Positions 13,894 through 34,054 of a stretch of DNA of 64,000 bases are shown one piece after another (position 1 is the first letter of the stretch; each line of letters starts with the position of its first letter). Source of the DNA: Bdellovibrionota bacterium (GTDB lineage Bacteria > Bdellovibrionota_C > UBA2361 > JAFLCA01); contig JBIKUD010000008.1 of assembly GCA_044347745.1 (NCBI GenBank), forward strand, positions 26,841-90,840, in the 5' to 3' direction. The position numbers and the translations under genes are program-made. The notes beneath the pieces were generated by a model. That model was not told where the DNA came from, ran no database searches, and saw only the letters and a list, made by a program, of their open reading frames with translations.

Positions 13894-14664
13894 ATGCAGA
13901 GCAGCAAAATGGCGGGGCCTGAACTAGTAATTGTAATGCCAGCCTATAACGAGGAAGGTTGTATCGAGCCCGTGGTATCTGGGTGGCTTAAGCAACTAGG
14001 GGCTATGGGGCTTAAGGGGCATTGCCTTCTCGTAGTTAACGACGGTTCCCGTGACCAAACCGGCAAAATCTTGGATAGCTTGGCAGCAAAGCAGCCTCAG
14101 GGCTTAAAGGTTATTCATCAACCTAATGGTGGGCATGGTAGAGCCCTACGGCATGCTTATGAGCAAGCACTGGCTCTTGAACCGAGCTGGGTTTTCCATG
14201 TTGATAGCGACGATCAGTTTATACCAGAAGATTTAAACAAACTTTGGCAGCAAAGGCACACCTCAGATTTTATACTTGGGCTCCGAGCAGTGCGACACGA
14301 TGCCCCGCATCGACTCGTTATAACCCGCATTATGAGGCTATTAAATTTTTTGGCTTTTGGTGTGTTTTTGAAAGATGCAAATGTGCCGTTTCGTTTGATT
14401 CGAGGATCGTACCTCAAATTGTTACTTGAAATTGTGCCTGCGACCGTATTTGCTCCAAACATTTTCCTCTCTGTGCTTGCTGCTCGTGATGGGCAGAATC
14501 TTGGTTTTTTACCGGTGCAACATCGTGAGCGAGAAACGGGAAAAGTATCTATCGTGCGCTGGGGACTGATAAAAGCTTGTATGCGTTGTGTCCGAGAGCT
14601 TATGGTTTTTCGGGTTCAGCTTGGATCAAATCTGGCAAAAATTCGGCGAGATCGTAAACCGTAA
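13894..14664 (+). CDS. GT2-family glycosyltransferase, polyprenol-phosphate sugar synthase type (Dpm1/GtrB/ArnC-like)
   Basis: The motifs VIVMPAYNEE, VVNDGSRDQT, NGGHGRAL and DSDDQF are all GT-A/GT2 signatures. The protein is short (256 aa), like polyprenyl-phosphate glycosyltransferases. Confidence 0.75.
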   Translation: MQSSKMAGPELVIVMPAYNEEGCIEPVVSGWLKQLGAMGLKGHCLLVVNDGSRDQTGKILDSLAAKQPQGLKVIHQPNGGHGRALRHAYEQALALEPSWVFHVDSDDQFIPEDLNKLWQQRHTSDFILGLRAVRHDAPHRLVITRIMRLLNFLAFGVFLKDANVPFRLIRGSYLKLLLEIVPATVFAPNIFLSVLAARDGQNLGFLPVQHRERETGKVSIVRWGLIKACMRCVRELMVFRVQLGSNLAKIRRDRKP

Positions 14665-14690: not shown

Positions 14691-16736
14691 GTGGGCCCTT
14701 TGGAGAATCTACCTGTGACAAAAATTGACCCCATCGCAGCCAATGAAATGTCTGTATCAAAAAGTTATTTTGCTGGGTTTTCTCGAGTTCAGCTTGTCTT
14801 ATTTTGGCTCTGCGTTGCGGTTGGATTAGCGCTGCGTTGGATAGGACTTGATGAAAGACCGTTTCATCATGATGAATCGTTGCATGGAATGTACGGGAAG
14901 TATTTTTTTGATTGGCCAGAGCACAATTACTACAAATACTCTCCAATGCTGCATGGGCCTTTCCTCTACAATATGTTGCGGGTTGTCTACAATACGCTCG
15001 GTGAAAGTGATTGGGCGGCTCGTGCGCCCATTGCGCTTGTAGGAAGTGCACTGCTGTTTGTTCCACTCTTGTTTCGTCGCTGGCTTAGCGTAGGCAGCGT
15101 GCTCGTGCTTACCGCCACTGTGTCTCTCTCTCCAACCCTAGTGTATTGGTCCCGATTTTTGCGTGAGGATACGCTTATTCTTGCGTTGATGGCCTTAATG
15201 CTATTTGCGGTCACAGAAATGCGCGCGCCTCTTAAAGCGTTCTGGTTCATTCTCGCTTTTACATTGCAGTTTTGTATTAAAGAAAATGCTTATGTGACTT
15301 TAGCTATTTTACTTGGCTACCTTGTTTTTGAGCATTTGTATGCATTATGGAAATTGGACGATAAAAATTCATTAGTCCGTTCGATGTTTCGATATGTGTC
15401 TCAGCACAAAGTTGCAACTTTCGTTGCGTGTGCGGTTAGTACCTTTATTTATTGTTATCTCTACAGCGCTGGTTTTCGCTACTCTCAGGGAATTCTCGAT
15501 GGTCTGTATCGTGAGAGCATTGTGTACTGGATGCATCACCACAACATCGAACGTATCAGCGGGCCGTTTTTGTTTCATTTCTACATGCTGTCTTGGTATG
15601 AGAGCTTGTTTGTTCTGGCCTTCTTGGCGCACCTCTACTTCTTTTATAGAGCTGCTTCAATGCCAGTACGCGCACTCGCTGCCGCCACTTTAATTTTTGC
15701 CTTAACCCTGGGTATTTGGGTATCGACCAACATGGGCGTTGGAGTCCAAGCTACAGGTTCTTTCTTGGACCCAACTAGTATTAACTTTCTTGTATGGAAG
15801 TTTTTTAAACTGAAAGACGGCTATGATTTAGTCGGACTTATCATATTTTTGGTTCATCCGTTTATTGTCACAGTGGTGCATCTTAACCGTGGTGAAAGGG
15901 CGCTCGCATTTTTTGGCTACTTCTTTACCGCCACACTTTTTACCTACAGCTATTTAGGCGAGAAGGTACCTTGGTTGTCTGTTTACCCATTTGTGTCAGG
16001 ACTGGCCTACTTTGCGTTGTTTTTTGAATCTGTGCTCGCCAAGTTTGACGTGGGCTATTGGTCTGAATGCAGCACTGCCGCATTGCTACGCAATTTTGGT
16101 ATTCTATGCTCGCTTCTTGGATTATGGTTCTTGGTAGAGTCTGGGGAGGTAGCCGAGCTGTGGTGGGTCTTTTCTGGCCTTGTTTTTGTGTTCGCCGCTA
16201 ACGCCGCTCAATCGGCAGGCATGCTCGGCTCGTATAATGCGGCGCGTTTTGGTTTTGCGGTGCTGGCTCTTTTTATGCTGAGAGCCTCAGTATTAACAAA
16301 CTTTGTATATGCCGGAGATGCACGAGAGTATATTTCTCAAGTGCATACTACCAAAGAATTTCACACCATCATGAAGGCTCTTCAAACTGAGATAAACAGC
16401 GAGCTTAGGGGCTATCGGCCTTCGGTTTTTGTAACGGGGGAAGCTACCTGGCCTTCAACTTGGTATATGCGTCATTATCCAAACGAATATAAGTTTACCG
16501 CAGCAACCGCTGATTACCCGTCATTTAATTATCTGGTGCTTGATTGGAAAGAAGGTGAGCGTCCTGCTGGTATTCCCGAGCACTTTAGGGTGCTGAAGAT
16601 CAACTTGCGTGGCTGGTGGGTTCCTGACTTTCGGGAAATGACCCTCAAGAGATTTTTAGCTTATGCGCTCAATCGCACTCCCTGGGGGCCAACAGGATAT
16701 TCCTACGTTAACTTGGTGGTAAACCCGGCAAAATAA
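14691..16736 (+). CDS. GT-C fold integral membrane glycosyltransferase-like protein (PMT/ArnT-like, GT39-type)
   Basis: Polytopic membrane protein of 681 aa. Its first loop carries HHDESLHGMYGKYF, which resembles the PMT/ArnT DE motif (FDEVHFGKF). Confidence 0.55.
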   Translation: MGPLENLPVTKIDPIAANEMSVSKSYFAGFSRVQLVLFWLCVAVGLALRWIGLDERPFHHDESLHGMYGKYFFDWPEHNYYKYSPMLHGPFLYNMLRVVYNTLGESDWAARAPIALVGSALLFVPLLFRRWLSVGSVLVLTATVSLSPTLVYWSRFLREDTLILALMALMLFAVTEMRAPLKAFWFILAFTLQFCIKENAYVTLAILLGYLVFEHLYALWKLDDKNSLVRSMFRYVSQHKVATFVACAVSTFIYCYLYSAGFRYSQGILDGLYRESIVYWMHHHNIERISGPFLFHFYMLSWYESLFVLAFLAHLYFFYRAASMPVRALAAATLIFALTLGIWVSTNMGVGVQATGSFLDPTSINFLVWKFFKLKDGYDLVGLIIFLVHPFIVTVVHLNRGERALAFFGYFFTATLFTYSYLGEKVPWLSVYPFVSGLAYFALFFESVLAKFDVGYWSECSTAALLRNFGILCSLLGLWFLVESGEVAELWWVFSGLVFVFAANAAQSAGMLGSYNAARFGFAVLALFMLRASVLTNFVYAGDAREYISQVHTTKEFHTIMKALQTEINSELRGYRPSVFVTGEATWPSTWYMRHYPNEYKFTAATADYPSFNYLVLDWKEGERPAGIPEHFRVLKINLRGWWVPDFREMTLKRFLAYALNRTPWGPTGYSYVNLVVNPAK

Positions 16737-17481: not shown

Positions 17482-19536
17482 TTAGGGCACGTACACCTTG
17501 TATTCCTTGCTTCGCACTATCTCCTTGAGGCAGCTGAATTGATTGCTTTGTAGGGACGGGTAGGCCTTTTTTTCAAGTGGGCCGAGCACAATATACGTTA
17601 TACGTTCACGACGGGCCAAGGTTCGAATATTTTCGCAATTGGGGTCAGTGTATATTTGATTCGTAACTTCCGTGCGTCGATTTACTTCAGCGTAATCTTT
17701 GCTGAGTAAATTTACATGATTCGTCCATCCCAAATAGGCTGGTTTGCCTGAGAGAGTGGCCACGTGCGTAGTAAAGTCGTACGCAGGTCCTTGTGCTTCA
17801 AGTACAGTGCCAAATCTACTGCGCTCTAAGATTTGGATGGTAGTGGCTGCCCCAGGAAAGCGTTTGTCTATTTCGCTTAGGCCTTGAGCGAGTGGTATCA
17901 CATCGTGAGCACTCGATTTTCTCACCTGAATGGTGCTGGTGAAAAAGCCGGTCATGAGGGCAATCAAAGTTACTAATATGGGAATTCTTGGAATATCTTT
18001 AATCTCGCCTAACCAGGGCATAAGCCAGGTAGAGGTGCGCCATAAGGCGAAGACATGCAGTGGCAGCCATGCAGCAGTGTAGGCTTTAAATACCGTATTC
18101 ATTCTTTCAACATCGCCACCATACGAGTCGTCGAAAAAGAAAAGTTCTGGAAATATAATCAGAAAGAGCCCAAGTACGCCCAGTGTCTCAAGCACGATAG
18201 CATCAATGCTGAGGGCAGATTTAGTTTGTTGTCGTAGTCGCCAAATGTTCAGCGCGAAAGCCACGAGTAGTAAATAAAGTGCTTTATTCGCTGCCAAGCT
18301 GGGAATAATAAATATTAGGCATAAAGTCATCCATCCCCAGGTGCGTGAGCTGAGAATTGTTGCACTGAGTATGAGAAAAAGTGGAAATCCCCAATGACGC
18401 AGCAAATCCTGCACACTTGAGTGGCCTATGCTGCTTGTGACCGGTCGAAGAGGCATATCGCCGGGCAAAATATTGCGAGAGGAAGCAAACAGACTAATTC
18501 CAAGAAAGAGGATAAGGAGCGAGGCGCTCGCTAATTTTAAATCAGCGAAATCTTTAAGGCTTGGGCGCAGGCTCCATACGTACCCCAATCGTGTGGTCAA
18601 GCGAGGAAGTAGGAAAAAAAGCACGCCAATTCCACACAGTATGAGCCAAACTGGAACCTCCCAAGCGTTGGCGTTGTAGAGCCAAAGGGGAGGGATTACA
18701 AAAACGCTGATACCGATAAAAAAACGCCAAGCATTTTCGGTGGTTTGTTTTAAGAGTGTGTGTAGCGCCACTATACACAAAGGAGTTACGCTTAAGTTCA
18801 AATAGTGAGGGTGTGCGTCGCCAAGTAGAAACGACCACGCAGGAAATTCATTGATGGTTCCGGGAATAACCCGTGACGGGCCCCACCAGTTTTTGTCGGC
18901 TTTTAGGAAGAATAAGACACCTTCAATATTCGAACCAAGCGCGATTAACGTGCTTGATGCCAGTGCAAAGAGGGGAGAAAATTTTGCGATATCCCGCAGA
19001 ATCAAAAAACAAAAAGTTAAAAAGAAACTAAGAGAGAGTGCAACGAGGGAATGGTAAACCTCCCAGGTTTGGAGCCCGAATAGTGCATGCAGTACATGCC
19101 CAAAACGATACCAATAAAAATAATAATTGAGCGGGGTCTCCGCCATCCAAGGCTCAAGCGGGATAATAGGAGAGTGAACTGCCGAGGCAACTAGGGCATA
19201 GTCTCTTAAACGTTCGCCCATCTGGTAAAAGTCTGGCCAACGGAGACAGAGGGAATAAAGGGCTGCATAACTTATTATCCAGAGAAGCAGCGGCAAGCCC
19301 TCGCGCTGAAGGTTCAGCTGTGCCCGCTTCCTATATGGATTTGTAAGAAAGTGTATTATCGCAATACCAAGCATCCAAAACACCGCGTACGATACCGGAT
19401 TTGGGATACCCATGCTGCCGAAGGGGAATGCGAGGATGGGCACAGTGAGCAGGGTTAAGACCGCAGTTAGAAAGGCTGGGAGGCGTAACAAAAATGCGAC
19501 GAATGTTGCGGTGCTAACACCGAGTATTATTTCCAT
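17482..19536 (-). CDS. Polytopic membrane protein, DUF2298/YYY-motif type (GT-C-like candidate)
   Basis: 684 aa with more than 12 predicted TM segments. The NYYFYWYRFG motif is reminiscent of the chlor_Arch_YYY family. Confidence 0.45.
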   Translation of the reverse strand: MEIILGVSTATFVAFLLRLPAFLTAVLTLLTVPILAFPFGSMGIPNPVSYAVFWMLGIAIIHFLTNPYRKRAQLNLQREGLPLLLWIISYAALYSLCLRWPDFYQMGERLRDYALVASAVHSPIIPLEPWMAETPLNYYFYWYRFGHVLHALFGLQTWEVYHSLVALSLSFFLTFCFLILRDIAKFSPLFALASSTLIALGSNIEGVLFFLKADKNWWGPSRVIPGTINEFPAWSFLLGDAHPHYLNLSVTPLCIVALHTLLKQTTENAWRFFIGISVFVIPPLWLYNANAWEVPVWLILCGIGVLFFLLPRLTTRLGYVWSLRPSLKDFADLKLASASLLILFLGISLFASSRNILPGDMPLRPVTSSIGHSSVQDLLRHWGFPLFLILSATILSSRTWGWMTLCLIFIIPSLAANKALYLLLVAFALNIWRLRQQTKSALSIDAIVLETLGVLGLFLIIFPELFFFDDSYGGDVERMNTVFKAYTAAWLPLHVFALWRTSTWLMPWLGEIKDIPRIPILVTLIALMTGFFTSTIQVRKSSAHDVIPLAQGLSEIDKRFPGAATTIQILERSRFGTVLEAQGPAYDFTTHVATLSGKPAYLGWTNHVNLLSKDYAEVNRRTEVTNQIYTDPNCENIRTLARRERITYIVLGPLEKKAYPSLQSNQFSCLKEIVRSKEYKVYVP

Positions 19537-19802: not shown

Positions 19803-20966
19803 TTAGTAACTCGGTTCTTGCTGTGACTCTGCTGCTCTTTGAATGGCCTCCAGGAACCGTCTTCGAATTTCTTCGCGGCGTTCATCTAAAGACGAATCTG
19901 CCTCTGGGTGGGTTACAGAATCGAAGGTTTGTTGGTGGTTTGCGAGAGCGCTTTGCGGTTCGCGAGCTTCAAATAGAGGCGCAGGGTTTGTCTGTTCCGG
20001 GGTTTTAAATTGAAGTAGGGAGTCTGGTTTTAAGAAAGCTGTTTGTATTGCATCACGGATGTCTGCCGGAAAATAATCTTCCTTTAAGCCTTCATCTTGC
20101 TGAGGCACTTCTTCCTGTTTCGGCAACACAAAGGTAGGCGCTTTGGAGTCAGTTTGTGGACCGCTCAGAAGATAGGGATGTTTGTAGAGCGTAATGGCCA
20201 GACTTAAGGTTATTGTAAAGGCAAGTAAGCTTGCCAAAAGTGTGACGTGAGATTTCACTTCAGGCTTTTTGATTGCGGCACTGAGGCCGGAGAGGTTTTC
20301 CTCCCTCAGTTTATTTATCAAATCGTTGTTCTTCGTTGCGTCACTTCCGAAACCAATGGTAGCCGAGCGAGGTCTTTCAAGTTGTACTCGACTGATATAC
20401 TCATTCTCAATCCAACTTTGAGGGCGATCTGAGAGCTGGGTTATAACAATAATGGACTGGGTTTTTGCCACAAATTTGACCATTCGGTCGGCAAACTCCT
20501 CCCTGCGCTGTTCTGAAAGACCCTTAAACGGGTCACTAAGTACATGCACCGTTTCTGGCTGCGCTTCGAGTGCTATAAGCCTTAGAATGCGTTGCTGTTC
20601 CAGCGAAAGTTCGGTGCAGCGCCTTTTTTGGAGCCCACCAAGTCCATTGGTGAGAAGTAGGCGTTCGCACTGAGCAGCGTCAATTTGAAATTCTGCAAGA
20701 TACTCCTGAGTTGAGCCCAGGTAACTTGGGGCAAAATCAGAACCAATTCCAAAATGATTGCAGGGAGTGCTCGCAAAAGGGGTCTGCCCCAAGAGTACTG
20801 AGAATTGGCCTGACTGCGAGGTGCCTAGGAGTGCTGCTTCATATTGGGAGCGGTCTGACTGATGCCCACGAAAAACGGTGATACGCCCAGGGAGACAGTT
20901 GATGCGCCTCTCAATTTCGCCATTCTTTTTAAGTTTAAATATCTCTAATGATGGGCGCATAGACAC
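19803..20966 (-). CDS. Degenerate ABC-ATPase-like domain protein with a TM segment and a low-complexity C-terminal tail
   Basis: ABC signature-like LSLEQQRIL followed by a Walker-B-like VHVLSDPF. Walker A is eroded (RGHQSDRSQY). There is a hydrophobic segment VTLLASLLAFTITLSLAITLY, then a Glu/Gln/Pro-rich tail. Confidence 0.4.
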   Translation of the reverse strand: MSMRPSLEIFKLKKNGEIERRINCLPGRITVFRGHQSDRSQYEAALLGTSQSGQFSVLLGQTPFASTPCNHFGIGSDFAPSYLGSTQEYLAEFQIDAAQCERLLLTNGLGGLQKRRCTELSLEQQRILRLIALEAQPETVHVLSDPFKGLSEQRREEFADRMVKFVAKTQSIIVITQLSDRPQSWIENEYISRVQLERPRSATIGFGSDATKNNDLINKLREENLSGLSAAIKKPEVKSHVTLLASLLAFTITLSLAITLYKHPYLLSGPQTDSKAPTFVLPKQEEVPQQDEGLKEDYFPADIRDAIQTAFLKPDSLLQFKTPEQTNPAPLFEAREPQSALANHQQTFDSVTHPEADSSLDERREEIRRRFLEAIQRAAESQQEPSY

Positions 20967-21241: not shown

Positions 21242-22099
21242 ATGTGCAAGTTCACATTTTTTGAAATAGCTCAGGGCATGTTGCATATTAATCGATGCTT
21301 TTTCCTTTTCATGCTGATGTTGTTTTTTGCCGACCGGGCCCAGGCTGAAGTTCGCTTCGGTCCTTTTAGCTGGGCGCCAGATGAAAAATCATTAGTTGTT
21401 GTTTCTCCTGCGCCAGAGCGTGCCGGCGTGTTTATCGGTTACGATGCACAAAGTGAGAACGCCCAACAACTTAGTTTATCGCGATTTTTTAAGGGGCTAG
21501 GGTTAAGCCTCTTTCTGGCATTCGACACCAAGCGTCATCAATTTACTGAGATTATATTTGGAAATGGCAAAAGATACCCCATCATGGGCGGAGTGACATT
21601 GCGAATTGGTTCTTTGCGAGTCGGAATTAATGCAGTTACTGGTCACACCCAAGAAGCGTATTGGTCAATCTCAGTCGAGTCGAAGGAAAAGCCTCGGATT
21701 GCAGGCTACTCAGGTTTGAGAGATCTTTTTTCGTATAGTGGGGCAACTGCGCTTTCCTATTTGGAAGCAAATCAGATTTTGAGCAAAGAATGGTCCAGCT
21801 CTGTGCATGAATATGTGGTTAAAGACAAACACGAATTGTTTGTGGGCGGGCAGCCATTTAAGGGCGATGTGCTTGGAGTTACCTTGCCAATTTCAAACCC
21901 ATGCTTAGACAGTGAAGTTCAGCTACAGACCACTGGGCCGGATGCTTCGATTGGCTCAATCGCCGATTTTCTAGTGATTAGTTTAAGCGAATCAGTTTTA
22001 CAGGTGTTTAGGCCTGCCGACGGAATGTTCGGTGTTATTCGAGCAAGTGGAGAGAAAGGCAAAGAAACGTGCACCTTTGTTCAAGTGCCAAATTCATAA
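21242..22099 (+). CDS. Hypothetical secreted protein
   Basis: N-terminal hydrophobic signal-like segment (FFLFMLMLFFADRAQA). I found no recognisable motifs. Confidence 0.35.
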   Translation: MCKFTFFEIAQGMLHINRCFFLFMLMLFFADRAQAEVRFGPFSWAPDEKSLVVVSPAPERAGVFIGYDAQSENAQQLSLSRFFKGLGLSLFLAFDTKRHQFTEIIFGNGKRYPIMGGVTLRIGSLRVGINAVTGHTQEAYWSISVESKEKPRIAGYSGLRDLFSYSGATALSYLEANQILSKEWSSSVHEYVVKDKHELFVGGQPFKGDVLGVTLPISNPCLDSEVQLQTTGPDASIGSIADFLVISLSESVLQVFRPADGMFGVIRASGEKGKETCTFVQVPNS

Positions 22100-25000
22100 A
22101 TTCGCACACCTCCACTTTGCATGCGTAATTTGAAGAGTCCGGGGTTCTCCGTAAATTTTCGTAAACCGACAGAGTTATAGGTTCCATTCGCGTAGAGCTT
22201 TTGTTCCTCCGTTCCAATAATAATATAGCGAACGGCAAGAAGTTTTAGATATGTATGTGCAATCTCAAGATTGTCGCTTGAGTAAATGGCATTAATTGCC
22301 TGTATTCGCTCGTGTACAGCTTGCCGCGAAGTCCCGCGTTGCTGCACATGATACTCCCAGCCAAGAACTGTAGGCAGGCCAGTGTGCATCGAAAAGCGAG
22401 TGAAGTTTTGATAGCTCTGACCATAGGCTTCCAGAATAACGGGTGTTCCCTGCACATTACGTCGCAGCCACTGGATGGCTTGGTATTCATGAAATGCATT
22501 TTCCTTTAGGTAGGCAGTGCCATTCAGAGTTGGACGTGGTCCATTAATTCGACGAAAAGAAGTCATGATATAGGCGTTATAAATTGAGCCCGCCATCACC
22601 ACTAGAAAACAAATTCCGCTTGCAAAGACCACGAAGCAGCTAAAATATCGGCCGAGCAGCTTGTACCTTGCGCCTCGATTCTGAAGGAGTCTTGAAAAGA
22701 GAGTTGCATTTGCGATTCCTAATAATAGCCAGATTGCATTGTAAAATTTAAAGACTGTATTCATGTGATCCATCAGAAAGCAGAGCTCGGCGAACGCCAT
22801 GATGCACCCAGCGAGCCAAAGAGATAGAGCGCCGAAACGCTGACCGCGGCTACTTTTGCTGTTAAGAGCCAGCGCAGCCCCGAGAGCACAGAGGAAACAT
22901 GAAACAGCAATAACGTCCCATGAAAGTGTTTGTGGTTGATGTGGCGAGCCAGCAGATAAGAGAAGTGGCGGGCTCATTAATATCAGTACGTAAAGAAAAT
23001 TGCGAAGGCGCTTCCATCGGGAAACGTCTGAACGAGAACTCAAAAGAAGCTGCAAGAAAACACCACAAGGAATAACCAGCCAATGTCCGAGATGACGCAA
23101 AATCTGATTAAGATTATTAAGTTCGAATGGGTGGTTGTATCCAAAGTGAGGCGTAAGGTCGTTTGCAGAATTTAATTTAAATATAACCAGAAATGGCAGC
23201 GCACCAATGGCGAGTAATGAGCCGTCACGTAAAAGATCTGCGAAAGCGGAGGTAATGCGAGCTATCGCGCGCTTCGGATATCTACCGCGTGCGTGCATAC
23301 AGGACGTATAGACCAGAATTATGCCAGTAAGTAGGCCATAGGAGATCGCATCCCAGGTGTTGGTAATAAAGATGAGGCCCAAAAGTATTCCGCAGAGAAT
23401 TCGGTGTAAAATGAGCGTAGGACTGAGGTCAGCGGGTTCTGCTCGGAAAAAGCGTGCCAGAAATAATAAACTGGTCAGAATGACCGGTACAACGATTACA
23501 TGCGCATGCAGGTCTGCAAATAAAAACGCCCAGAATGGATATTCAGTAATGCTCGGTTCGGTAAAGAGGCGAGAGCTTGCCCAGAATAAATCAAAGCTTT
23601 TTTTCTCGGCCTGCAAGGCAAGCAGTAAAACTTCAATGTTACTGCCCACCAACACAAGAATTGTAAAACTAAGCGCTATAAGCGGTTTTTTGGTTAGGTA
23701 GGCAAGCAAGGAATACAGCGCCGAAATGCTTAACGCCGCAATGGTTGCCATACTCAAATTGTAGCCAATGGCACTGTCGACTCCACTCATTTTATGAAGG
23801 AGTGCCATCATGTATGAGCCAAAGTAATAATAGCGCATCGAGGAGCCCGCGGCCCACGGATCTTGAGGAGGCAGAGTTTCAAGGCGGATAAAGTAATTTA
23901 GAAACCCAAAGTCCATGGGTTTTTCGCCCCAGAAAATTTCAGGCTGGAATGATCTTAGAAAAATAAAACCTGCAAATGAGAGCCAGAATAGGATGTCGAG
24001 CCTTAAGTACGACTTCAGCTTGGGAACAGTGATGAAATGAGACTTTCTATGTGCGAAATAACCGAGGGTTAAGCCAAGCAAAGTTAATAAAGTAAATAAC
24101 AGCCAGGCATTTGCTCCTGTTGAGCGCCAGAGATTGAAGCTGGTTCCAATCCATACAGTTCCAGATAACAATGCGAGGCCCAGCACTTTGTCGCATCCCG
24201 TGTCGGAATCTTGTTTCTGGGTAAATAAAATCCGAGTGAAGGTATTACCGAGAATCCCCAACGCGACAAGGACCAGCACCCACAATGATATGGCAAGCGG
24301 TGTCGACTGACGTGACTGTGCCGTATGGGCATGAGCTGGGCCGTCACGTTTAAGCATATCGCTTCGGGTGGGAAGTGGAGCAAATGCGTACGGCTCAGAA
24401 AGACGTCGGGAAATTTGCTCTGTTCCGAGTCTTTCCGAATTTTTAAACACCAGCACTTTGGGATGGTCGTATACAGTGAGACTTTCGTCTGCCTTATCGT
24501 TATTCCATACGTAGCCAGCAAATGTAGGCCTTGTTTTTTGGCTATACACTAGTTCGTAGCCAAGAGCGCCACGAAAGAGCAATTGGAACATCTGTGTGCT
24601 GAGGGGGTATTCTTCAGGAATGCGAGGGATAGCTCCATATGACCGGGCAGTAGGCAAGATAAGGTAGTCGGAACTGGCTAACTTTGTGGCGTACTGAGTT
24701 ACTTTATCGGAATTATCGGGATGATATAACTGAAGCTCATGGTCTGCGCCTTCAAAAAGGTATTGGCGAGCATCGAGTCCTGGAAGGCTCAGTGGGAGCC
24801 TGTCATCCCAGTCAACTCCCAGTAGTTTTGAACCGGGGGCAATGTTTTGATAAATCCAACGACTCGCGGTTTCATAGGCATGTGGCTCACTGTAAATTTG
24901 ATAAAATCCGAACCACCGTACAAGTGAAATCGATACGACAAAACAGGGCACCAGTTTACCAATATTTTGGGTGATGCTGTTCTTTAGAAATCCCGTGGTG

Positions 25001-26082
25001 AATATCGCTGCCCAGATTGCAAACATGGGGTACAGAGGCAAAAGATATCGTGGAAACTTAACGGGAAATCCTCCATAGATATAAAAAGTTACTAAAGACC
25101 AAGCGCTTACAATCAGCATTGAGGCAGAAAAATGAGACCTGAGCGAGTAAAGGAGACCGATTCCACTTGCGAGTGCTATAAATGGGCCTAGAGTATAAAA
25201 ATATATCTGGTGCAAAGGATACAACCAGGGTGTCGTGTGCGCGTATTGAATGATGTACGGAGGTCGCCAGTCACCACGCACCATAGAAATTTGCTCCATG
25301 GTGTGTTTGATAAAGAGATCTTTATCAATAAGTGCAAAGGGCTCAGAGAGGAGAAATGAGCACAATCCTACAAGTGGAATGCTGCTGGCATATATCCACC
25401 AGTGTGCGCTTTTAAGCATTCGTAGCTGGCAGCCAAAAATAAGAATGGCTAAACCCAAAGGTAAAGCAAGATTAAGTGCGCTCACTTTAGTTGCAAGTGC
25501 CAAGCCCCAAAGCCAGCCACTGAGGACAAATGCCCATAATTTTCCGGAGCGAATCTGAAGGATGGCCCAAAGGGTCCAGAGGCTTGCTGTGGTAAGAAAA
25601 ATATCCACCGCAAAAAAACGAGAAAGCTGAAAATAGAAAGTATTTGTTGCTAGTAATGCGGTGGCTATGACTGCAACCGAGCGAGAGTTGCAAATGCTCC
25701 ATGCAAGTTTCCAAGTTGCAATAAGGCCCAGCATGCCAACAAAAGCTGAAAGTCCACGACCTATTAAAAAAAGGTTGTCGTAGCTAAAGGCCGCGGGCCA
25801 AAGCAGTGCGAGCAATTTCGCCAGGCCCCAGGTTAGGTAAAATGGCAAGCTGCCATACGCAAAAGACAACGGGTTCATTCCGTTTTTTTCGAGGTCTAAG
25901 GTAACCATGACCATGTGGCGTTCGTCAGGATGGAAGCTTACCCCGTGATTGATGGTCGTCAGTGCGGCAAAGAAAAAAGCGAAGCAGAGCGCGGTGAGGG
26001 GCCAGGCGTCTTTCAGTGTCTGAATCTGCCCTTTCAAAGTCAGTTTTGAGTCTCCAGCTAAATCAGATTGAGGTGTATGCAT
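22081..26082 (-). CDS. Giant (1333 aa) polytopic membrane protein: an N-terminal PMT/ArnT-like GT-C domain fused to a DUF2298/YYY-type domain
   Basis: The N-terminal loop motif FHPDERH is of the DE-motif type. There are more than 20 hydrophobic segments and an MRYYYFGSY motif in the C-terminal half. It is a single uninterrupted ORF. Confidence 0.55.
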   Translation of the reverse strand: MHTPQSDLAGDSKLTLKGQIQTLKDAWPLTALCFAFFFAALTTINHGVSFHPDERHMVMVTLDLEKNGMNPLSFAYGSLPFYLTWGLAKLLALLWPAAFSYDNLFLIGRGLSAFVGMLGLIATWKLAWSICNSRSVAVIATALLATNTFYFQLSRFFAVDIFLTTASLWTLWAILQIRSGKLWAFVLSGWLWGLALATKVSALNLALPLGLAILIFGCQLRMLKSAHWWIYASSIPLVGLCSFLLSEPFALIDKDLFIKHTMEQISMVRGDWRPPYIIQYAHTTPWLYPLHQIYFYTLGPFIALASGIGLLYSLRSHFSASMLIVSAWSLVTFYIYGGFPVKFPRYLLPLYPMFAIWAAIFTTGFLKNSITQNIGKLVPCFVVSISLVRWFGFYQIYSEPHAYETASRWIYQNIAPGSKLLGVDWDDRLPLSLPGLDARQYLFEGADHELQLYHPDNSDKVTQYATKLASSDYLILPTARSYGAIPRIPEEYPLSTQMFQLLFRGALGYELVYSQKTRPTFAGYVWNNDKADESLTVYDHPKVLVFKNSERLGTEQISRRLSEPYAFAPLPTRSDMLKRDGPAHAHTAQSRQSTPLAISLWVLVLVALGILGNTFTRILFTQKQDSDTGCDKVLGLALLSGTVWIGTSFNLWRSTGANAWLLFTLLTLLGLTLGYFAHRKSHFITVPKLKSYLRLDILFWLSFAGFIFLRSFQPEIFWGEKPMDFGFLNYFIRLETLPPQDPWAAGSSMRYYYFGSYMMALLHKMSGVDSAIGYNLSMATIAALSISALYSLLAYLTKKPLIALSFTILVLVGSNIEVLLLALQAEKKSFDLFWASSRLFTEPSITEYPFWAFLFADLHAHVIVVPVILTSLLFLARFFRAEPADLSPTLILHRILCGILLGLIFITNTWDAISYGLLTGIILVYTSCMHARGRYPKRAIARITSAFADLLRDGSLLAIGALPFLVIFKLNSANDLTPHFGYNHPFELNNLNQILRHLGHWLVIPCGVFLQLLLSSRSDVSRWKRLRNFLYVLILMSPPLLLSAGSPHQPQTLSWDVIAVSCFLCALGAALALNSKSSRGQRFGALSLWLAGCIMAFAELCFLMDHMNTVFKFYNAIWLLLGIANATLFSRLLQNRGARYKLLGRYFSCFVVFASGICFLVVMAGSIYNAYIMTSFRRINGPRPTLNGTAYLKENAFHEYQAIQWLRRNVQGTPVILEAYGQSYQNFTRFSMHTGLPTVLGWEYHVQQRGTSRQAVHERIQAINAIYSSDNLEIAHTYLKLLAVRYIIIGTEEQKLYANGTYNSVGLRKFTENPGLFKLRMQSGGVRIYEFGT

Positions 26083-26421: not shown

Positions 26422-28050
26422 ATGACAAAACCCGCAGATTCACTTGGGTCTCGAATTGGTGCTTTTATTGGCGCTCACGATATTTTGGTTTTGGTAGCAT
26501 TTTATAGCATGCTGCTCGTTCAGGCCCCATTATTTGCGAGCGATGCGGGTGTTGGGTGGCACCTTAAGACCGGTGAATGGATTGCCAAGCACTTTTCGGT
26601 TCCGTATACAGATCCATTCCTATTTTCCTCGCAGCCTCGTGCTTGGATTTGTGATCAGTGGCTTTCAGATCTAATTCTTTGGGTTCTTTACCAAGCGGGG
26701 AATTGGCCGCTGCTGTATGCTTTTTTGGCCGTCATTTTTGGCGCGGTGTTTTTTGTATTGCTGTATAGAACACTGAGAGATTTTTCGGGATTCGCATTAC
26801 CTGTAAGTCTTGCCCTGATTTTAGCTTTTAAGCTCGCACAGATCCATTTTGTCTTGAGGCCAGTCATTTTTGGAATAGCCCTTTTTGCACTTCTGTACTG
26901 CCTAACCCTCAACATACTGAAGTATTTTTCCGTAGCAACCACTCAGCACATAATGCGTGAGTTCCACTTCATTGCCCTAGGGGCGGTTTTATTTGCTTTG
27001 TGGGCAAACATCCATCCAACTTTTGTATTGGGCTGGATATTTCTCGTGAGCGTCTTTTTGGGGTTAGCGCTCGATCGGTATCTATTAGAGCAGCATGAAG
27101 TTGCCTGGGTATCTCCAAAATTTTGGGCTTTTGCCGCTCTATTGCTGTTTGTTGCAGTAGCTGCCACTTTGCTTAATCCAAATTTTTTGGCGCTTCATCA
27201 GAGCATTTATGCCCTCGGCACCAGCGCATATTTTATGCGTTATCATCAAGAATGGTTGGGGGTCGATTTTATATCATTTGAAGGCAAGTTGGTTTTTTTT
27301 GTTTCTGCTGCTCTTTGGGTGGCCTTGGTTATTTCGCCCACCTTACGTCGGCACCTTGGATTCCGGTTTCTTGTGCCTTTTTTAGTTTTTTTGTGGTTTG
27401 GAATCACTGCGCAACGTGGGCTTCCCTTTTTTGGGATAGTGGCTTCGCTACCTTTTGCACTCGCGCTGGCACACCTGGGAAAAGCCGAGGCATTGCAGGG
27501 CAGGAGTTTGAAATCTCGATTGGTTCGGCATTTTGCTGTTATTGAGAGCTTTGAAAGGCGAGCGCCAAGGGGCGCCGCGATATTTTTTGCGCTTTCCTGT
27601 TTAGTTTTTGGGGATGTCTTCTTAAATGGGCAGACACTTTTCTACCGTGGCCCCTATGGACCTGCCCAAGAACGTTATCCCTATATTAGCCTCGGAGTGC
27701 TTAAAGACCTGGCGACTCCTGAAAATAAGCTTGCTGTGCTGGCTCCCGCCGACTGGGGCGGCTTTATGACCCTCGAAGGGGAGGGCAGTCTTGAGCCTAT
27801 TATTGATGACCGTAATGTGCTTCTTGGCGAGCAGTTTTATAAAGATTTCCATTTTTTTATGAACCCTACCCGTGATTGGCTTAATTATGCAGTCTCGTTA
27901 GGCAGTACCCACCTGCTTTGGCCAGCACAATCAGATCTGGCGCGAAAGATTAAGCAAAATGGAGATGCCTATCTTGTGCATGAGGATGAAATTGCTATTG
28001 TTTTTGAACTTCGGTCTACTCTTTCATTAAATGGCGAGGATGGAGACTAA
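26422..28050 (+). CDS. Polytopic membrane protein, possibly GT-C-like. It is translationally coupled to the VKOR-DsbA gene.
   Basis: 542 aa with many TM segments. It overlaps the downstream gene by 20 nt. Confidence 0.4.
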   Translation: MTKPADSLGSRIGAFIGAHDILVLVAFYSMLLVQAPLFASDAGVGWHLKTGEWIAKHFSVPYTDPFLFSSQPRAWICDQWLSDLILWVLYQAGNWPLLYAFLAVIFGAVFFVLLYRTLRDFSGFALPVSLALILAFKLAQIHFVLRPVIFGIALFALLYCLTLNILKYFSVATTQHIMREFHFIALGAVLFALWANIHPTFVLGWIFLVSVFLGLALDRYLLEQHEVAWVSPKFWAFAALLLFVAVAATLLNPNFLALHQSIYALGTSAYFMRYHQEWLGVDFISFEGKLVFFVSAALWVALVISPTLRRHLGFRFLVPFLVFLWFGITAQRGLPFFGIVASLPFALALAHLGKAEALQGRSLKSRLVRHFAVIESFERRAPRGAAIFFALSCLVFGDVFLNGQTLFYRGPYGPAQERYPYISLGVLKDLATPENKLAVLAPADWGGFMTLEGEGSLEPIIDDRNVLLGEQFYKDFHFFMNPTRDWLNYAVSLGSTHLLWPAQSDLARKIKQNGDAYLVHEDEIAIVFELRSTLSLNGEDGD

Positions 28051-29401
28051 TATAAAACATAAAGCTGTAGCGCTTGTCCCAGTACTCAGTGTTATTGGGG
28101 CGGTGCTTAGTCTCATTTCTCTGTATCAACATACCGCACTTGTTCATGGTGTGGCGACAGGGCCTTCATTCTGCAATTTAAGCGCTGAGGTGAATTGCGA
28201 TGCCGTGAATGCGAGTGCCTGGTCAACCGTATTGGGTCAGCCGCTTGCAGCCTATGGCGTTGCCTTTTATTTCTTAATCTTTTTTGGTTGGGTAGCGACC
28301 TTGCGAAAGCCAGCACTTTCGCAGACTCATTTTGTTGCTTTACTCAGTTTTTTTAGTGGTATTGCCTTTTTAGCCTCGATAGCGCTTTTCGCAATTTCCA
28401 AATTTGTGATCGGAACCCTGTGTCTACTCTGCATGGGGATGTATGCGGTCAATGCCGCTTTGTTTATGCTTGCGCTCCTTATTCCAGCCCAGGGTTCTGG
28501 GCTTGTGCATAAATTTTTGCTTGGAATTAAACTTTGCATTCAGTTTCCAAAGTTTTTGCTAAGCTCTAGCGCTCAGCAGTTAAGTGATGGTGATAAAAAC
28601 AGTGCAGATAAAAACTCCGGCGATAAAAATACCAGCGATAAAAATACCGTGCGATTGCAGGTGTTTGGCATTGCATCAATACTCTGCGCTGTTTTTTTCT
28701 TACCGAACTTCATGTACGCCGTCTTCATGCGCGACAAGCAGGTCGAGCGCAGTTTATCGCAGGTAAGTGAGCAAGTGTGGCAGAGTTGGCAAAATGCCCC
28801 TGTCAGTAATTTGGGGTTAGATTTTGACTCTGCCATCTCTCGCGATTATGCCTATGGGGCAGACGGGGCAGACGGGGCAGACGGGGCAGCATTTCAGTTA
28901 GTTGAGTTTGTTGATTTTGAATGCCCAGCTTGTCGCATGGCGTATCGGGAATTTAAAAAGTTAGCCCAGAAATTTGATGGCCAATTACAAATTGTGCTCA
29001 AGAATTATCCGCTTGATAATTCATGTAATCCAAGTATGCCAAGGCCGCTACATGCTTCAGCTTGCTTTCTTGCAAGTGTATCCCGCTGTGCTGGAGAGCA
29101 GGGGAAATTTTGGGAAGTTACAGATTATTTGTTCGAGCTGCCAATTGTTGAAGCTGAAGCTTCATTTGAGGAGGTCCGATCCGAGGCGTTTAAGGCTGTA
29201 GAGCTTTTCGAATTGGATGAGCAGGCGCTGCGAGAGTGTTTGGGCTCACCGCGAGTACTTGCAAAGCTTCATTCTGATATTGAGCTTGGTAATCAGCTTG
29301 GCTTACGGGGTACACCTTCCTTATGGTTAAACGGGAAAAAGCTTGAGGTTTCTCACCCTGAGGTAGTCGAGTCGCTGATAAAGAGAGCGATGCGCCAATG
29401 A
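28031..29401 (+). CDS. VKOR-like membrane domain fused to a periplasmic DsbA/thioredoxin-like domain (a disulfide-bond formation module)
   Basis: Membrane CxxC in LCLLCMGMYAVN plus loop cysteines (CNLSAEVNCDA), as in VKOR. The C-terminal FECPACRMAY is a thioredoxin CxxC. The linker contains DKNS and GADGADGAD repeats. Confidence 0.65.
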   Translation: MARMETNIKHKAVALVPVLSVIGAVLSLISLYQHTALVHGVATGPSFCNLSAEVNCDAVNASAWSTVLGQPLAAYGVAFYFLIFFGWVATLRKPALSQTHFVALLSFFSGIAFLASIALFAISKFVIGTLCLLCMGMYAVNAALFMLALLIPAQGSGLVHKFLLGIKLCIQFPKFLLSSSAQQLSDGDKNSADKNSGDKNTSDKNTVRLQVFGIASILCAVFFLPNFMYAVFMRDKQVERSLSQVSEQVWQSWQNAPVSNLGLDFDSAISRDYAYGADGADGADGAAFQLVEFVDFECPACRMAYREFKKLAQKFDGQLQIVLKNYPLDNSCNPSMPRPLHASACFLASVSRCAGEQGKFWEVTDYLFELPIVEAEASFEEVRSEAFKAVELFELDEQALRECLGSPRVLAKLHSDIELGNQLGLRGTPSLWLNGKKLEVSHPEVVESLIKRAMRQ

Positions 29402-31499: not shown

Positions 31500-32585
31500 A
31501 TGCGCAAGCAGGTCTATGCGCATATCGTAACGTACAATCCAACGAACGATATTTCGCTTTGTCTTGAGTCGGTGCTCGCACAGCAGGATTCAAGCATCCA
31601 GGTGACTCTTACTCTTCGAGATAATGCATCTCAAGTTGCCATTCCTTTTGATGAATTGAAAAAGTCTTTTGCGGATCGGCTTCGCATAGTTCGAAATGCC
31701 CATAATCTTGGTTTTAGTGGTGCGCATAATCAGGGAGTCTCGGAGTTCTTGGAAAGTTCAGCCGATTACTTTCTGGTGCTTAACTCTGATCTTAAACTTG
31801 GCCCTGGGTGCCTCAAGGCATTAATTGATACAGCCGAGAGGGTGGGGGCCGAGTTTGCGACTCCGCTACTGCTACGCTGCAACGAAAAGTTAGAACCTAT
31901 TGAGCCCGCGGTCGTTGATGCGGCAGGAATGGTGCTCAGAAAAAGTATAAGGCATTTCGATAGAGGGAGTGGATCTCCTTTGCTCCCTGAGTTTGAGATC
32001 CCGGCTTTTGTGTTTGGGGGAACCGGCGCTTGCTTGTTAATTAGTCGTAAGGGCGTTCTGGACTGCTTGTTACATTTAGAAGCATGGAAGCAAGACCTCT
32101 ACGCATGTTATCCCGTACTCGGTTTCAACACAGGCTCTCGCGCCGAGTTATTTGATGAGGCTTTTTTTGCCTATCGTGAAGATGCCGATTTGGCTTGGAG
32201 AGCTCAAGCTTTAGGTTGTCGCTGTGTATTTGTACCGCAGGCGCGGGCTTTTCATCGGCGTTGTGTACTACCCGAGAATCGCAGCCAGCAGCAGGCTTTT
32301 CTCAATTTGTTGGGTGTAAAAAATCGATTTCTGTTGCAGTTTAACAATTTTTTCCCGGAACTTGGTTGGGGGGCGATACTCAGCGGAGTTCTGCTTAGAA
32401 ATCTGATCGTATTGCTGGGAGTTTTTGTGCTTGAGCGTTCATCTATTCCTGGACTATTTGAAGCTTGGAAGCTTCGTCGCCGCGCTTGGGCATTAAGGAC
32501 TCAAGTTCGAAAGAAAAGCTTGGCATCTGCATCGCAACGCTCAATTTCCCGCTGGTTAACCCAAGATAGTGAGCCACTACAATGA
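31500..32585 (+). CDS. GT2-family glycosyltransferase
   Basis: AHIVTYNP...LRDNASQ matches a GT-A N-terminal domain. 361 aa. Confidence 0.65.
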   Translation: MRKQVYAHIVTYNPTNDISLCLESVLAQQDSSIQVTLTLRDNASQVAIPFDELKKSFADRLRIVRNAHNLGFSGAHNQGVSEFLESSADYFLVLNSDLKLGPGCLKALIDTAERVGAEFATPLLLRCNEKLEPIEPAVVDAAGMVLRKSIRHFDRGSGSPLLPEFEIPAFVFGGTGACLLISRKGVLDCLLHLEAWKQDLYACYPVLGFNTGSRAELFDEAFFAYREDADLAWRAQALGCRCVFVPQARAFHRRCVLPENRSQQQAFLNLLGVKNRFLLQFNNFFPELGWGAILSGVLLRNLIVLLGVFVLERSSIPGLFEAWKLRRRAWALRTQVRKKSLASASQRSISRWLTQDSEPLQ

Positions 32586-33367
32586 ATAATAGAAAATTGG
32601 CAGTCATCACTGGAGCCTCCTCTGGAATTGGTGCCGAATTTGCGCGGCAACTTGCTAATCAAGGTTATGACCTCTTGCTCGTGGCGAGGCGCAAGCCTCT
32701 TTTGGAGTCTTTGAAAGGCGAGTTGGAAACAGCTTTCAAGATTAACGTTGATTATAGGAGTGTCGATTTTTCAAATTCGACGGAACTTCGCCAATTTTGC
32801 TTCGAGTTGTCAAAAGTGCCCGTAGATCTATTGGTAAATAACGCAGGATTTGGCTCCTTCGGCCATTTTGACTCTCTTCCGATCGAATCTGAGTGTCAGA
32901 TGCTTGAGGTTAACGTGATTGCCGGGCTCAGAATATTGCACGCAGTTTTGCCAAATATGAAACAGCGGAGAAAGGGAGGGATACTGGTCACCTCCTCAGT
33001 GCTTGGCTTTCAGCCGACCCCCTACATGGCTACCTATGCTGGCACAAAGGCCTTCAATTTGTATCACTCGTTAGCCTTGCGTCAGGAATTAGAGCCATAT
33101 GGGATTCGTGTGGTTTCGGTCTGTCCGGGGCCCACAGATACAGAATTTGCCGGAGTGGCGCGGGTGCCTGGGCAATTTACTGCGGTGCGCCGAGATAGCG
33201 TTAGTCTTGTAGTCAGGCAAAGTCTGAGAGCTTATGAGCGTAATAACGCCTGTATCGTGCCTGGGCTTAGGTCTTGGGCGTTGTCACTGCTTAGTCGCAC
33301 CCTTCCATTTGCATCGACCATCCCATTATTTGAGAGAATATTGCGGGGTTCGCTTAAATCTCGGTAA
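32582..33367 (+). CDS. Short-chain dehydrogenase/reductase (SDR)
   Basis: TGASSGIG cofactor motif and a YAGTKAF catalytic YxxxK motif. It overlaps the upstream GT2 gene by 4 nt. Confidence 0.85.
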   Translation: MNNRKLAVITGASSGIGAEFARQLANQGYDLLLVARRKPLLESLKGELETAFKINVDYRSVDFSNSTELRQFCFELSKVPVDLLVNNAGFGSFGHFDSLPIESECQMLEVNVIAGLRILHAVLPNMKQRRKGGILVTSSVLGFQPTPYMATYAGTKAFNLYHSLALRQELEPYGIRVVSVCPGPTDTEFAGVARVPGQFTAVRRDSVSLVVRQSLRAYERNNACIVPGLRSWALSLLSRTLPFASTIPLFERILRGSLKSR

Positions 33368-33394
33368 ACTGATTGCCTATAGGCCGGACGAGAT

Positions 33395-34054
33395 ATGAAA
33401 GAGAAGGTTGCTGAAGAAATCGCACGACTTGTCCAGGATGGTCAGATTATTGGCGTCGGCACGGGCACCACAGTTGACTGTGCTCTTGAAGCCATAGGTC
33501 GCCGGATTCAAACTGAAAAATTGCGTCTATCTGTCGTTCCCACCTCCCTTGAGAGTGCCTGGCGCTGCGAGTCACTTGGATTGCAGGTGCTTCATTCAGC
33601 CTACAGTGGCGTGCTGAATTGGGGCTTCGACGGAGCGGATGCCGTAAATTCTCAAAAATGGCTTATCAAGGGAAAAGGCGGAGCGCTTTTTCAAGAGAAA
33701 GTTTTAGCTGCGCGCTGCAAAACTTTTCTGGTGATAGTTGATGAATCAAAAATTGTGAGCGATCTTTCAGTTTGCCCTATCCCACTCGAAGTACTTCCTC
33801 AAGCTCGCGCGCATGTAGAGAGAGAATTGAAATTGCGTGGCGCTCAATCTGTTACTCTTAGACAAGGTACTGGGAAACACGGCCCAATAATTTCGGAACA
33901 AGGCAATATTCTGCTCGATGCAAAATTTGCCCAAATCGGACCAGGCCTCGAAAAAGATCTAAAGACCATAGTTGGAGTTGTTGAGTCTGGCCTCTTTATT
34001 GGCTATGCCTCTGAGGTGTTGGTCGGTACGGCAGCTGGCGTGCGACGTCTTTGA
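33395..34054 (+). CDS. rpiA: Ribose-5-phosphate isomerase A
   Basis: GVGTGTTV and KGKGGALFQEKV motifs. 219 aa. Confidence 0.88.
   Translation: MKEKVAEEIARLVQDGQIIGVGTGTTVDCALEAIGRRIQTEKLRLSVVPTSLESAWRCESLGLQVLHSAYSGVLNWGFDGADAVNSQKWLIKGKGGALFQEKVLAARCKTFLVIVDESKIVSDLSVCPIPLEVLPQARAHVERELKLRGAQSVTLRQGTGKHGPIISEQGNILLDAKFAQIGPGLEKDLKTIVGVVESGLFIGYASEVLVGTAAGVRRL

Follow-up and report, generated by a model that had tools for sequence, protein, structure and literature searches.

A single open reading frame (ORF) at 22081..26082 on the reverse strand stands out in a 64,000-nucleotide stretch of DNA from a Bdellovibrionota bacterium (GenBank assembly GCA_044347745.1, contig JBIKUD010000008.1, positions 26,841 to 90,840; hereafter the window). 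In the ORF list it starts with ATG and yields a product of 1333 amino acids. The gene is real, and it encodes one long inner-membrane protein in which two GT-C-like modules lie end to end. An earlier note, made from the sequence alone, had described it as one ORF fusing a PMT/ArnT-like GT-C domain with a DUF2298/YYY-type domain, a description borne out by matches to PMT_2, DUF2298 and TIGR03662, all above their cutoffs. From the N- to the C-terminus, the order of parts is the PMT_2 module, its predicted periplasmic domain, the DUF2298/YYY module and a second predicted periplasmic domain. The gene and its parts are as follows.

22081..26082, reverse strand: whole fusion gene, encoding the 1333-residue putative tandem GT-C protein (ORF, Pfam and NCBIfam matches)
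24898..26082, reverse strand: membrane part of the N module, residues 1 to ~395, with ~11 transmembrane helices (PMT_2, AlphaFold, Foldseek, conservation)
24313..24897, reverse strand: predicted periplasmic alpha/beta domain of the N module, residues ~396-590 (AlphaFold secondary structure and conservation)
22558..24312, reverse strand: membrane part of the DUF2298/YYY module, residues ~591-1175 (DUF2298, TIGR03662, AlphaFold, Foldseek)
22084..22557, reverse strand: predicted C-terminal periplasmic globular domain of the DUF2298 module, residues ~1176-1333 (AlphaFold alpha/beta, Foldseek, conservation)

The earlier note had allowed that so long an ORF might be an assembly chimera, and a frameshift joining two adjacent genes would have the same appearance. 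Both are ruled out. Contigs from separate samples, at least 12 in number (those displayed being one Logan run and three JGI metagenomes), encode precisely this 1333-residue sequence, and more than 100 full-length homologs of 1290-1930 residues that share the domain order of the fusion turned up in a database search. Moreover, 57 of the 150 nearest representatives of the periplasmic-domain family are complete fusions, and base composition is uniform along the gene. We found no support for an artefact. Split versions do exist in some of the 80 related loci that we compared at ORF level (L008 and L010-L012), but there the break falls at residues ~361-390 rather than ~590, and in L010 and L012 the PMT_2 gene lies on the opposite strand. 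We therefore consider an artefactual origin of the ORF practically excluded.

The N-terminal half is an ArnT/PMT-type GT-C module and a member of the PMT_2 family. In Pfam, PMT_2 (PF13231) matches residues 111-238 with 35.9 bits against a gathering cutoff of 26.1 (E 1.1e-8), and homologs of the fusion also match PMT (PF02366). AlphaFold models of both halves were built on a 42-43-sequence alignment. The model of the N half, with a mean predicted local distance difference test score (pLDDT) of 89 and a predicted TM-score (pTM) of 0.89, gave 19 Foldseek matches in the PDB at E<=1e-3. All of them were GT-C proteins (best E 5.8e-8, TMq up to 0.52), namely STT3, ALG9, ALG12, AglB, ArnT, PglB, DPY19, Pmt4 and Emb. 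At the sequence level, a profile search of the PDB with this half gave weak matches to Pmt4 (9i5k, E 0.0015) and ArnT (5ezm, E 0.016), and phmmer with the whole fusion found nothing among PDB sequences. Conservation across 42 sequences marks two candidate active-site stretches. Directly after the first transmembrane helix (residues 16-42) lies H51-P-D53-E54-R55, in which D53, E54 and R55 reach 90% conservation or more; K342, P344, R345 and Y346, further on, are invariant. The latter residues belong to V341-K-F-P-R-Y346, which aligns with S-K-L-P-G-Y of ArnT and thus forms an ArnT-like K342-x-P-x-Y346; we take this KxPxY stretch to hold the ArnT tyrosine that contacts undecaprenyl phosphate. 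The predicted periplasmic domain that follows carries invariant W425-D-D427 and D532-E-S ... Y538-D-H-P. The MIR domain that a GT39 protein O-mannosyltransferase proper has in its large luminal loop was not detected in the fusion by Pfam, and the 'family 39' label of public homologs derives from PMT_2/PMT similarity only. Likewise, at E<=0.01 in NCBIfam, the N half did not match the ArnT equivalog model PRK13279 (GT83), nor did the fusion match TIGR03663. The idea, put forward in the earlier note, that a TIGR03662/TIGR03663 pair is fused here had to be dropped, as the N half does not belong to TIGR03663.

The C-terminal half is a full-length member of DUF2298/TIGR03662. DUF2298 (PF10060) matches residues 641-1121 with 257.6 bits against a cutoff of 27.8 (E 3.5e-76, profile positions 4-488 of 488), and TIGR03662 (chlor_Arch_YYY) matches residues 597-1330 with 428.2 bits against a cutoff of 300.25 (profile positions 4-725 of 727). 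To assess conservation, we used an alignment of 83 DUF2298 modules from fused, split and standalone genes, including the second DUF2298 gene of the window. The YYYxG motif of the family is present as M-R-Y751-Y-Y-F-G (residues 749-755), with Y751 invariant and Y752 and Y753 mostly conserved. Four transmembrane helices (594-619, 631-648, 656-680 and 689-711) precede a loop resembling external loop 1 (EL1) that carries E720, D724, W743 and Y751-Y-Y753; R838, E847, D857-x-H859-x-H861 and N1108-x-x-F-K1112 follow downstream, and the C-terminal domain contains invariant E1218, Y1224, G1241-W1242 and H1245. With at most one gap among the 83 modules, E720, D724, W743, Y751, R838, E847, D857, H859, H861, W910, N1108, F1111, K1112, E1218, Y1224, W1242 and H1245 are all near-invariant. 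E720 and D724, located 9-13 residues past helix 689-711, would occupy the position of the GT-C catalytic acid, and the D-x-H-x-H stretch may represent a metal site, which it resembles.

The AlphaFold model of the C half (mean pLDDT 92, pTM 0.93) likewise matched GT-C proteins exclusively, with 16 PDB entries at E<=1e-3 in Foldseek. These comprise DPY19 (2.5e-8), STT3 from yeast and human, AglB, AftA (which had the top TM-scores, 0.42/0.50), ArnT and Pmt, and the C-terminal domain of this half separately gave a match to the globular C-terminal domain of AglB (3vu0; E 0.06, prob 1.00, TMt 0.50). Based on the model, the C half is thus predicted to adopt a GT-C fold, and the most plausible reading of the whole protein is two GT-C modules in tandem, not a transferase joined to an unrelated partner. 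The similarity to STT3 does not extend to its signatures. Pfam gave no STT3 match on the C half, and the STT3, GT87 and GT22 cross-matches of homologs all fall in the N half (in homolog P0110, STT3 matches residues 55-188). Furthermore, the C-terminal domain has G-W-E-Y-H instead of WWDYG, and neither a DK nor an MI motif was found.

With respect to topology, which the earlier note had proposed to predict, hydropathy alone proved too crude for a GT-C protein, and helix parity in the AlphaFold models was used instead. Four helices separate the periplasmic domain of the N module from the EL1-like loop of the C module, and the even number means that both loops lie on the same side of the membrane. 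Because GT-C enzymes are universally oriented in the same way, this parity suggests a periplasmic location for the putative active-site loops, YYY motif included, and for the two globular domains, in agreement with the placement that the note had expected.

The genes around the fusion are the following.

13894..14664, forward strand: GT2 glycosyltransferase, 256 residues (Glycos_transf_2, E 2e-19)
14691..16736, forward strand: Agl23-family (TIGR03663) polytopic membrane protein, 681 residues
16747..17463, forward strand: BPL_N (biotin-protein ligase N-terminal, amidotransferase-like) protein, 238 residues, between the Agl23-like gene and DUF2298(B)
17482..19536, reverse strand: standalone DUF2298(B) paralog, 684 residues (DUF2298, E 2.3e-49)
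19803..20966, reverse strand: 387-residue protein with a weak ABC-ATPase-like stretch and one weak PHROG match of unknown function
21242..22099, forward strand: 285-residue protein with an apparent N-terminal signal peptide, as judged by eye
26422..28050, forward strand: g26422, a 542-residue polytopic membrane protein with a C-terminal soluble domain, divergent from the fusion
28031..29401, forward strand: VKOR-DsbA fusion gene, overlapping g26422 by 20 nt

According to the earlier note, each half of the fusion resembles a separately encoded neighbour. For the C half, this proved correct: it shares 26% identity with DUF2298(B) over ~670 residues (BLASTP E 5e-29), hhalign probabilities were 100 (membrane part) and 99.8 (C-terminal domain), and DUF2298(B) retains all invariant DUF2298 residues. 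By sequence comparison, the C half and DUF2298(B) are clearly paralogous, though long diverged. For the N half, the claim failed, as comparison with the 14691..16736 product gave a BLASTP E of 2 and an hhalign E of 0.14 (probability <1%). PMT_2 is matched by 12 of 15 orthologs of that product (best E 2.3e-8), but not by the window's own copy, and the alignments thus link the two proteins at the superfamily level only. When the N module, the C module, the Agl23-like protein and g26422 were compared with each other by hhalign, the C half and the B paralog formed the only significant pair. The DE motif that had been pointed out in the 14691..16736 product is indeed there, as part of an invariant H59-H-D61-E62-S63, and the protein scores 229.6 bits against a cutoff of 126 on TIGR03663, for which the current NCBI name is 'flippase activity-associated protein Agl23'. 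The GT2 gene ends 27 nt upstream of this Agl23-like gene, has syntenic orthologs of 55-62% identity in L001, L002 and L016, and is a candidate polyprenyl-phosphate sugar synthase. On its other side it adjoins three genes for TadG/TadE-like pseudopilins (769, 523 and 219 residues; 9026..13773, reverse strand), also syntenic in L001, L002 and L016.

Of the remaining neighbours, the BPL_N gene is missing from all 80 related loci. The genes at 19803..20966 and 21242..22099, the second of which is convergent with the fusion and overlaps its 3' end by 19 nt, were likewise found in none of the related loci and gave no PADLOC match; considered as remnants of a mutase or flavoenzyme or as defence genes, they showed no similarity to such proteins. 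Synteny of the fusion with the g26422 and VKOR-DsbA pair extends to L001, L002, L005, L006 and L009. We considered g26422 as a possible fifth GT-C protein and rejected it, since it had no PDB or Pfam match. Its family bears no annotation beyond 'hypothetical', tetratricopeptide repeats occur in a few distant relatives, and its product could be another envelope-glycan enzyme. Just after the phosphoenolpyruvate carboxykinase gene lies an operon-like run (31500..34054, forward strand) of a 361-residue GT2, a short-chain dehydrogenase/reductase overlapping the GT2 by 4 nt and a 219-residue protein of no known type, partly syntenic in L002, L005, L006 and L009. Farther away, a cobalamin riboswitch (50113..50287, forward strand; 81 bits, full-length model) precedes a 655-residue ORF at 50322..52289.

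Relatives of the fusion occur in 170 species-representative genomes (one scan), and most of those examined have the fused architecture. The closest reach only 46-48% identity, which places the window in an unsampled Bdellovibrionota-like lineage. They belong to Bdellovibrionota/Oligoflexia, 'Deltaproteobacteria' metagenome-assembled genomes, Acidobacteriota (Thermoanaerobaculia, Holophagales), Binatia, SAR324 and others. The presence of the fusion in a diderm bacterium, which the earlier note had singled out, is therefore nothing unusual. In public databases, homologs are named 'DUF2298 domain-containing protein', 'glycosyltransferase family 39 protein' or 'phospholipid carrier-dependent glycosyltransferase'; the architecture is thus already annotated and abundant in diderm phyla, and its function is uncharacterised.

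Across the 80 loci, the fusion or an unfused DUF2298(A) is followed by a DUF2298(B) paralog, in several architectural states. In the first, represented by the window, L001, L002, L005, L006, L016 and others, a PMT_2-DUF2298(A) fusion precedes a same-strand DUF2298(B), after which come a convergent Agl23-like gene and, beyond it, a GT2 gene. In the second (L008, L010-L012), a gene of its own, divergent in L010 and L012, encodes the PMT_2 membrane part, while the periplasmic domain remains joined to the N-terminal end of DUF2298(A), in proteins of 967-973 residues. In the third, comprising ~21 Bdellovibrionota loci, DUF2298(A) and DUF2298(B) of ~760-770 residues each, usually overlapping by 4 nt, lie beside an Agl23-like gene, and no PMT_2 gene was found nearby. 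The form typical of Acidobacteriota and Binatia is a PMT_2-DUF2298 protein of ~1590-1700 residues with a C-terminal NHL beta-propeller, often with a standalone DUF2298 gene upstream and sometimes with an Agl23-like-NHL protein. In Acidobacteriota, the Agl23-like protein and the PMT_2-DUF2298 fusion can both end in such a propeller (L060 13484..16504, L079 14789..17476; P0058 and similar), which suggests a shared periplasmic ligand or acceptor. A TIGR03663 gene flanks 24 of the 80 loci by tblastn (23 by ORF-level BLASTP), and in L025 it overlaps the DUF2298 gene by 4 nt. One apparent DUF2298-TIGR03663 fusion of 1287 residues, in L059, proved to be a spurious ORF extension over a real 693-residue DUF2298 gene in another frame.

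When the periplasmic domain of the N module alone was searched against 1.84 billion representatives, it returned 2165 clusters. Besides the 57 complete fusions, the best 150 of these contain 14 truncated fusions, 41 standalone PMT_2 proteins with the domain and ~27 proteins in which the domain precedes DUF2298 without the PMT_2 membrane part. The PMT_2 module hence occurs fused, split and standalone, the classic Rosetta-stone pattern. The earlier note had asked for a phylogeny of each half; for the DUF2298 half, a neighbour-joining tree, tentative as it was computed without bootstrap, separates clade B, containing 17482..19536, from clade A, which holds every fused module and has the unfused Bdellovibrionota A modules nested inside. 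This topology suggests an ancient A/B duplication, with the PMT_2 module secondarily lost or separated in some lines. Altogether, the A-then-B order across the 80 loci, the 4-nt overlaps, the presence of TIGR03663 in 24 loci and the Rosetta-stone pattern support the view, already taken in the note, that these families are functional partners.

Several related loci contain genes that offer hints about the sugar donor. In L001, L002 and L016, the nearest of the syntenic loci, the GT2 and Agl23-like genes are separated by a gene for a eukaryote-type UDP-galactopyranose mutase (18065..19426 of L001, reverse strand; E 3e-136 to 4dsg, the enzyme of T. cruzi), and in the Acidobacteriota locus L079 the mutase adjoins a GT2 near the Agl23-like gene. 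In the loci that have unfused A and B genes and no PMT_2, the same position can be taken, in a GT2 - flavoprotein - Agl23-like operon, by a 463-residue flavoprotein of the amine-oxidase family (L071 17079..18470, reverse strand, and ~14 other loci), with weak similarity to the bacterial UDP-galactopyranose mutase 1i8t (E 5e-7). Finally, in 9-12 Acidobacteriota-type loci, a UbiA-family gene is found just upstream of the PMT_2-DUF2298-NHL gene (L013 7814..8743, forward strand), with a DUF362 gene alongside; its nearest relative is the mycobacterial decaprenyl-phosphate phosphoribosyltransferase 8j8j (E 5e-29). Mutase and UbiA enzymes make precursors of lipid-linked furanose donors, and such donors serve mycobacterial GT-C enzymes as substrates. 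These genes of relatives hint at furanose donors, and the conserved neighbourhood of GT2, Agl23-like and second DUF2298 genes points to a periplasmic glycosylation pathway using polyprenyl-phosphate sugars.

Taking these observations together, we propose, with a probability of roughly 0.55, that the fusion is a covalent pair of periplasm-facing GT-C transferases of the inner membrane, working with the B paralog, the GT2 and the Agl23-like protein. In such a pathway, the GT2 (13894..14664) would load a sugar onto undecaprenyl phosphate at the cytoplasmic face, and the Agl23-family protein (14691..16736) would help to shift the lipid-linked sugar to the periplasmic face. There, the N module, the DUF2298 C module and DUF2298(B) would each pass sugar from the lipid donor to the same envelope acceptor, whether glycan, lipid or protein. 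The fusion would then be a single-polypeptide version of the Pmt1-Pmt2 and EmbA-EmbB hetero-oligomers, keeping two sequential or cooperating transfers side by side.

A number of observations weigh against this proposal. The GT-C assignment of the C half comes from the fold search alone, with TM-scores of just 0.35-0.42 and high rmsd (root-mean-square deviation); its hhalign comparison with the N module gave an E of 0.042, and the profile search yielded no PDB sequence match in this half. The equivalence of E720/D724 to the catalytic acid is positional only. Agl23-family proteins retain the DE motif though they are described as flippase-associated, and its conservation is therefore no proof of transferase activity. 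The matches of the GT2 to ArnC, AglJ, PpgS and dolichyl-phosphate hexose transferase are weak and far below every NCBIfam cutoff. Within the 64 kb of the window, two unrelated genes part the fusion from the B paralog, its immediate downstream neighbour in relatives, and the mutase, flavoprotein and UbiA genes of relatives were not found. Lastly, a literature search for DUF2298, TIGR03662 or PF10060 returned no functional paper, and hence no characterised member of the family; the 'YYY domain' that does appear in the literature is the different, unrelated Y_Y_Y domain.

The case of Agl23 also underlies a different division of labour, according to which only one module transfers and the other, no longer catalytic, binds, presents or scrambles the polyprenyl-phosphate-linked donor or holds the acceptor. 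The earlier note had raised a version of this as one possibility, with one half flipping or presenting the donor and the other transferring it. Agl23 of Haloarcula, a PMT_2-superfamily protein described as a hexose-P-dolichol flippase, translocates lipid-linked oligosaccharide in liposomes when purified (PMC11182771), yet has the invariant HHDES; a GT-C-like scaffold can thus move lipid-linked sugars. In addition, the ~21 Bdellovibrionota loci with a DUF2298 A and B pair and no nearby PMT_2 indicate that the core system can do without the N module. However, the N half is not a TIGR03663 protein and a dedicated Agl23-family gene is already present in the locus, and both modules have a predicted GT-C fold and retain full sets of invariant polar residues at the expected GT-C active-site positions, more than a passive scaffold usually keeps. 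Considering this gene and the complete sets in both modules, a non-catalytic partner is the less economical reading, and we consider it unlikely, if far from negligible.

As for the acceptor, none of the more specific proposals is favoured by the data. The DUF2298 module might be an STT3/AglB/DPY19-like glycosyltransferase of periplasmic or surface proteins, whose C-terminal domain recognises the acceptor peptide: the best Foldseek matches of the C half are the peptide-modifying DPY19, STT3 and AglB, its C-terminal domain matches 3vu0, the TadE/TadG-like pseudopilin genes are syntenic neighbours, and the invariant G-W-x-x-H (residues 1241-1245) is loosely reminiscent of the STT3 WWDYG motif. 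We judge this improbable, given that the STT3 match and the WWDYG, DK and MI motifs are all missing from the C half, that the ranking of matches with the GT-C_A fold does not predict the acceptor (AftA has the top TM-score), and that the cluster genes of relatives indicate furanose donors, which are typical of glycan rather than protein modification. Alternatively, the N module could be an ArnT/FlmK-like glycosyltransferase of lipid A or the lipopolysaccharide (LPS) core, and the locus would decorate LPS. The host is a Bdellovibrionota-like diderm, and Bdellovibrio lipid A reportedly carries mannose in place of phosphate. Moreover, the N half has a fold match to ArnT and a weak sequence match that takes in KxPxY, and the pairing of GT2 and GT-C mirrors ArnC/ArnT and Francisella FlmF/FlmK (PMC2233673). 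LPS decoration nevertheless seems quite improbable to us: there is no ArnT equivalog match, no lipid A genes lie near the locus in the window, and Acidobacteriota and Binatia have this architecture in abundance, together with NHL propellers and UbiA or mutase genes, which are not an LPS-modification signature. More far-reaching, and in our estimation a decidedly doubtful proposal, is that DUF2298/YYY is an unrecognised GT-C family using lipid-linked furanose donors (polyprenyl-P-galactofuranose or -ribo/arabinofuranose), which together with the PMT_2 module, the A/B pair and the Agl23-like flippase would build an arabinogalactan-like envelope glycan in Bdellovibrionota, Acidobacteriota and Binatia. 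If true, the DUF2298 furanose system would be the Gram-negative counterpart of the mycobacterial Emb/Aft machinery.

Irrespective of the acceptor, the gene in the window is an ordinary member of its group, and its value lies in what can be read at the family level. DUF2298 is a large family of membrane proteins without known function, in which fusion or translational coupling to other GT-C-like proteins recurs. Our analysis adds a predicted GT-C fold, invariant candidate catalytic residues, the series of fused, split and standalone forms and an association with genes for lipid-linked, possibly furanose, donors, so that testable hypotheses are now at hand. It also raises the questions of which envelope glycoconjugate these abundant, mostly uncultured diderms make and why two transferases are tied together.

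The proposed pair of transferases shares features with several known systems. STT3/AglB/PglB and DPY19 provide the best E-values for the C half and, similarly to it, combine a membrane domain with a C-terminal globular domain (the match to 3vu0). Unlike them, the C half has four extra N-terminal helices, lacks an STT3 Pfam match and WWDYG, and bears signature residues of its own (E-x3-D, D-x-H-x-H and N-x-x-F-K). The mycobacterial AftA/Emb enzymes and the decaprenylphosphoryl-arabinose (DPA) pathway (UbiA/Rv3806c) compare with the present system in the top TM-score of AftA to the DUF2298 module (0.42/0.50), in the Rv3806c-like UbiA or UDP-galactopyranose mutase genes of relatives, and in having several GT-C enzymes per pathway. 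They differ in that the DUF2298 module has no sequence similarity to Aft/Emb and the window has neither UbiA nor mutase; the diderm hosts of the fusion are not known to make arabinogalactan.

With three-component systems such as ArnC/ArnT and Francisella FlmF/FlmK, the locus shares a GT2 gene adjoining one for a polytopic membrane protein, together with a PMT_2-type GT-C protein with DE and KxPxY. Small flippase components known from such systems are ArnE/F or GtrA, whereas the putative flippase here is Agl23-like; the locus further differs in lacking an ArnT equivalog match and in having three to four GT-C-like modules compared to one. The logic would be alike, loading sugar onto undecaprenyl phosphate, flipping it and transferring it in the periplasm (PMC2233673). 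Another parallel is Haloarcula hispanica, in which, as reported in PMC11182771 with reference to Lu 2020, Agl22 (GT2) and Agl23 (TIGR03663) make and use hexose-P-dolichol. The window has the same two families, 27 nt apart, in a bacterial host and at distant sequence similarity, and the fusion itself is no Agl23 homolog. For the fusion, the counterparts are yeast Pmt1-Pmt2 (6p25) and mycobacterial EmbA-EmbB (7bvf). Unlike these pairs, it has neither a MIR domain nor a carbohydrate-binding module, and joins two very different GT-C families (PMT_2 and DUF2298) in one polypeptide. Like it, both consist of two GT-C membrane glycosyltransferases, and both are among its fold matches; they are characterised by obligate pairing, polyprenyl-phosphate sugar donors and extracytoplasmic active sites.

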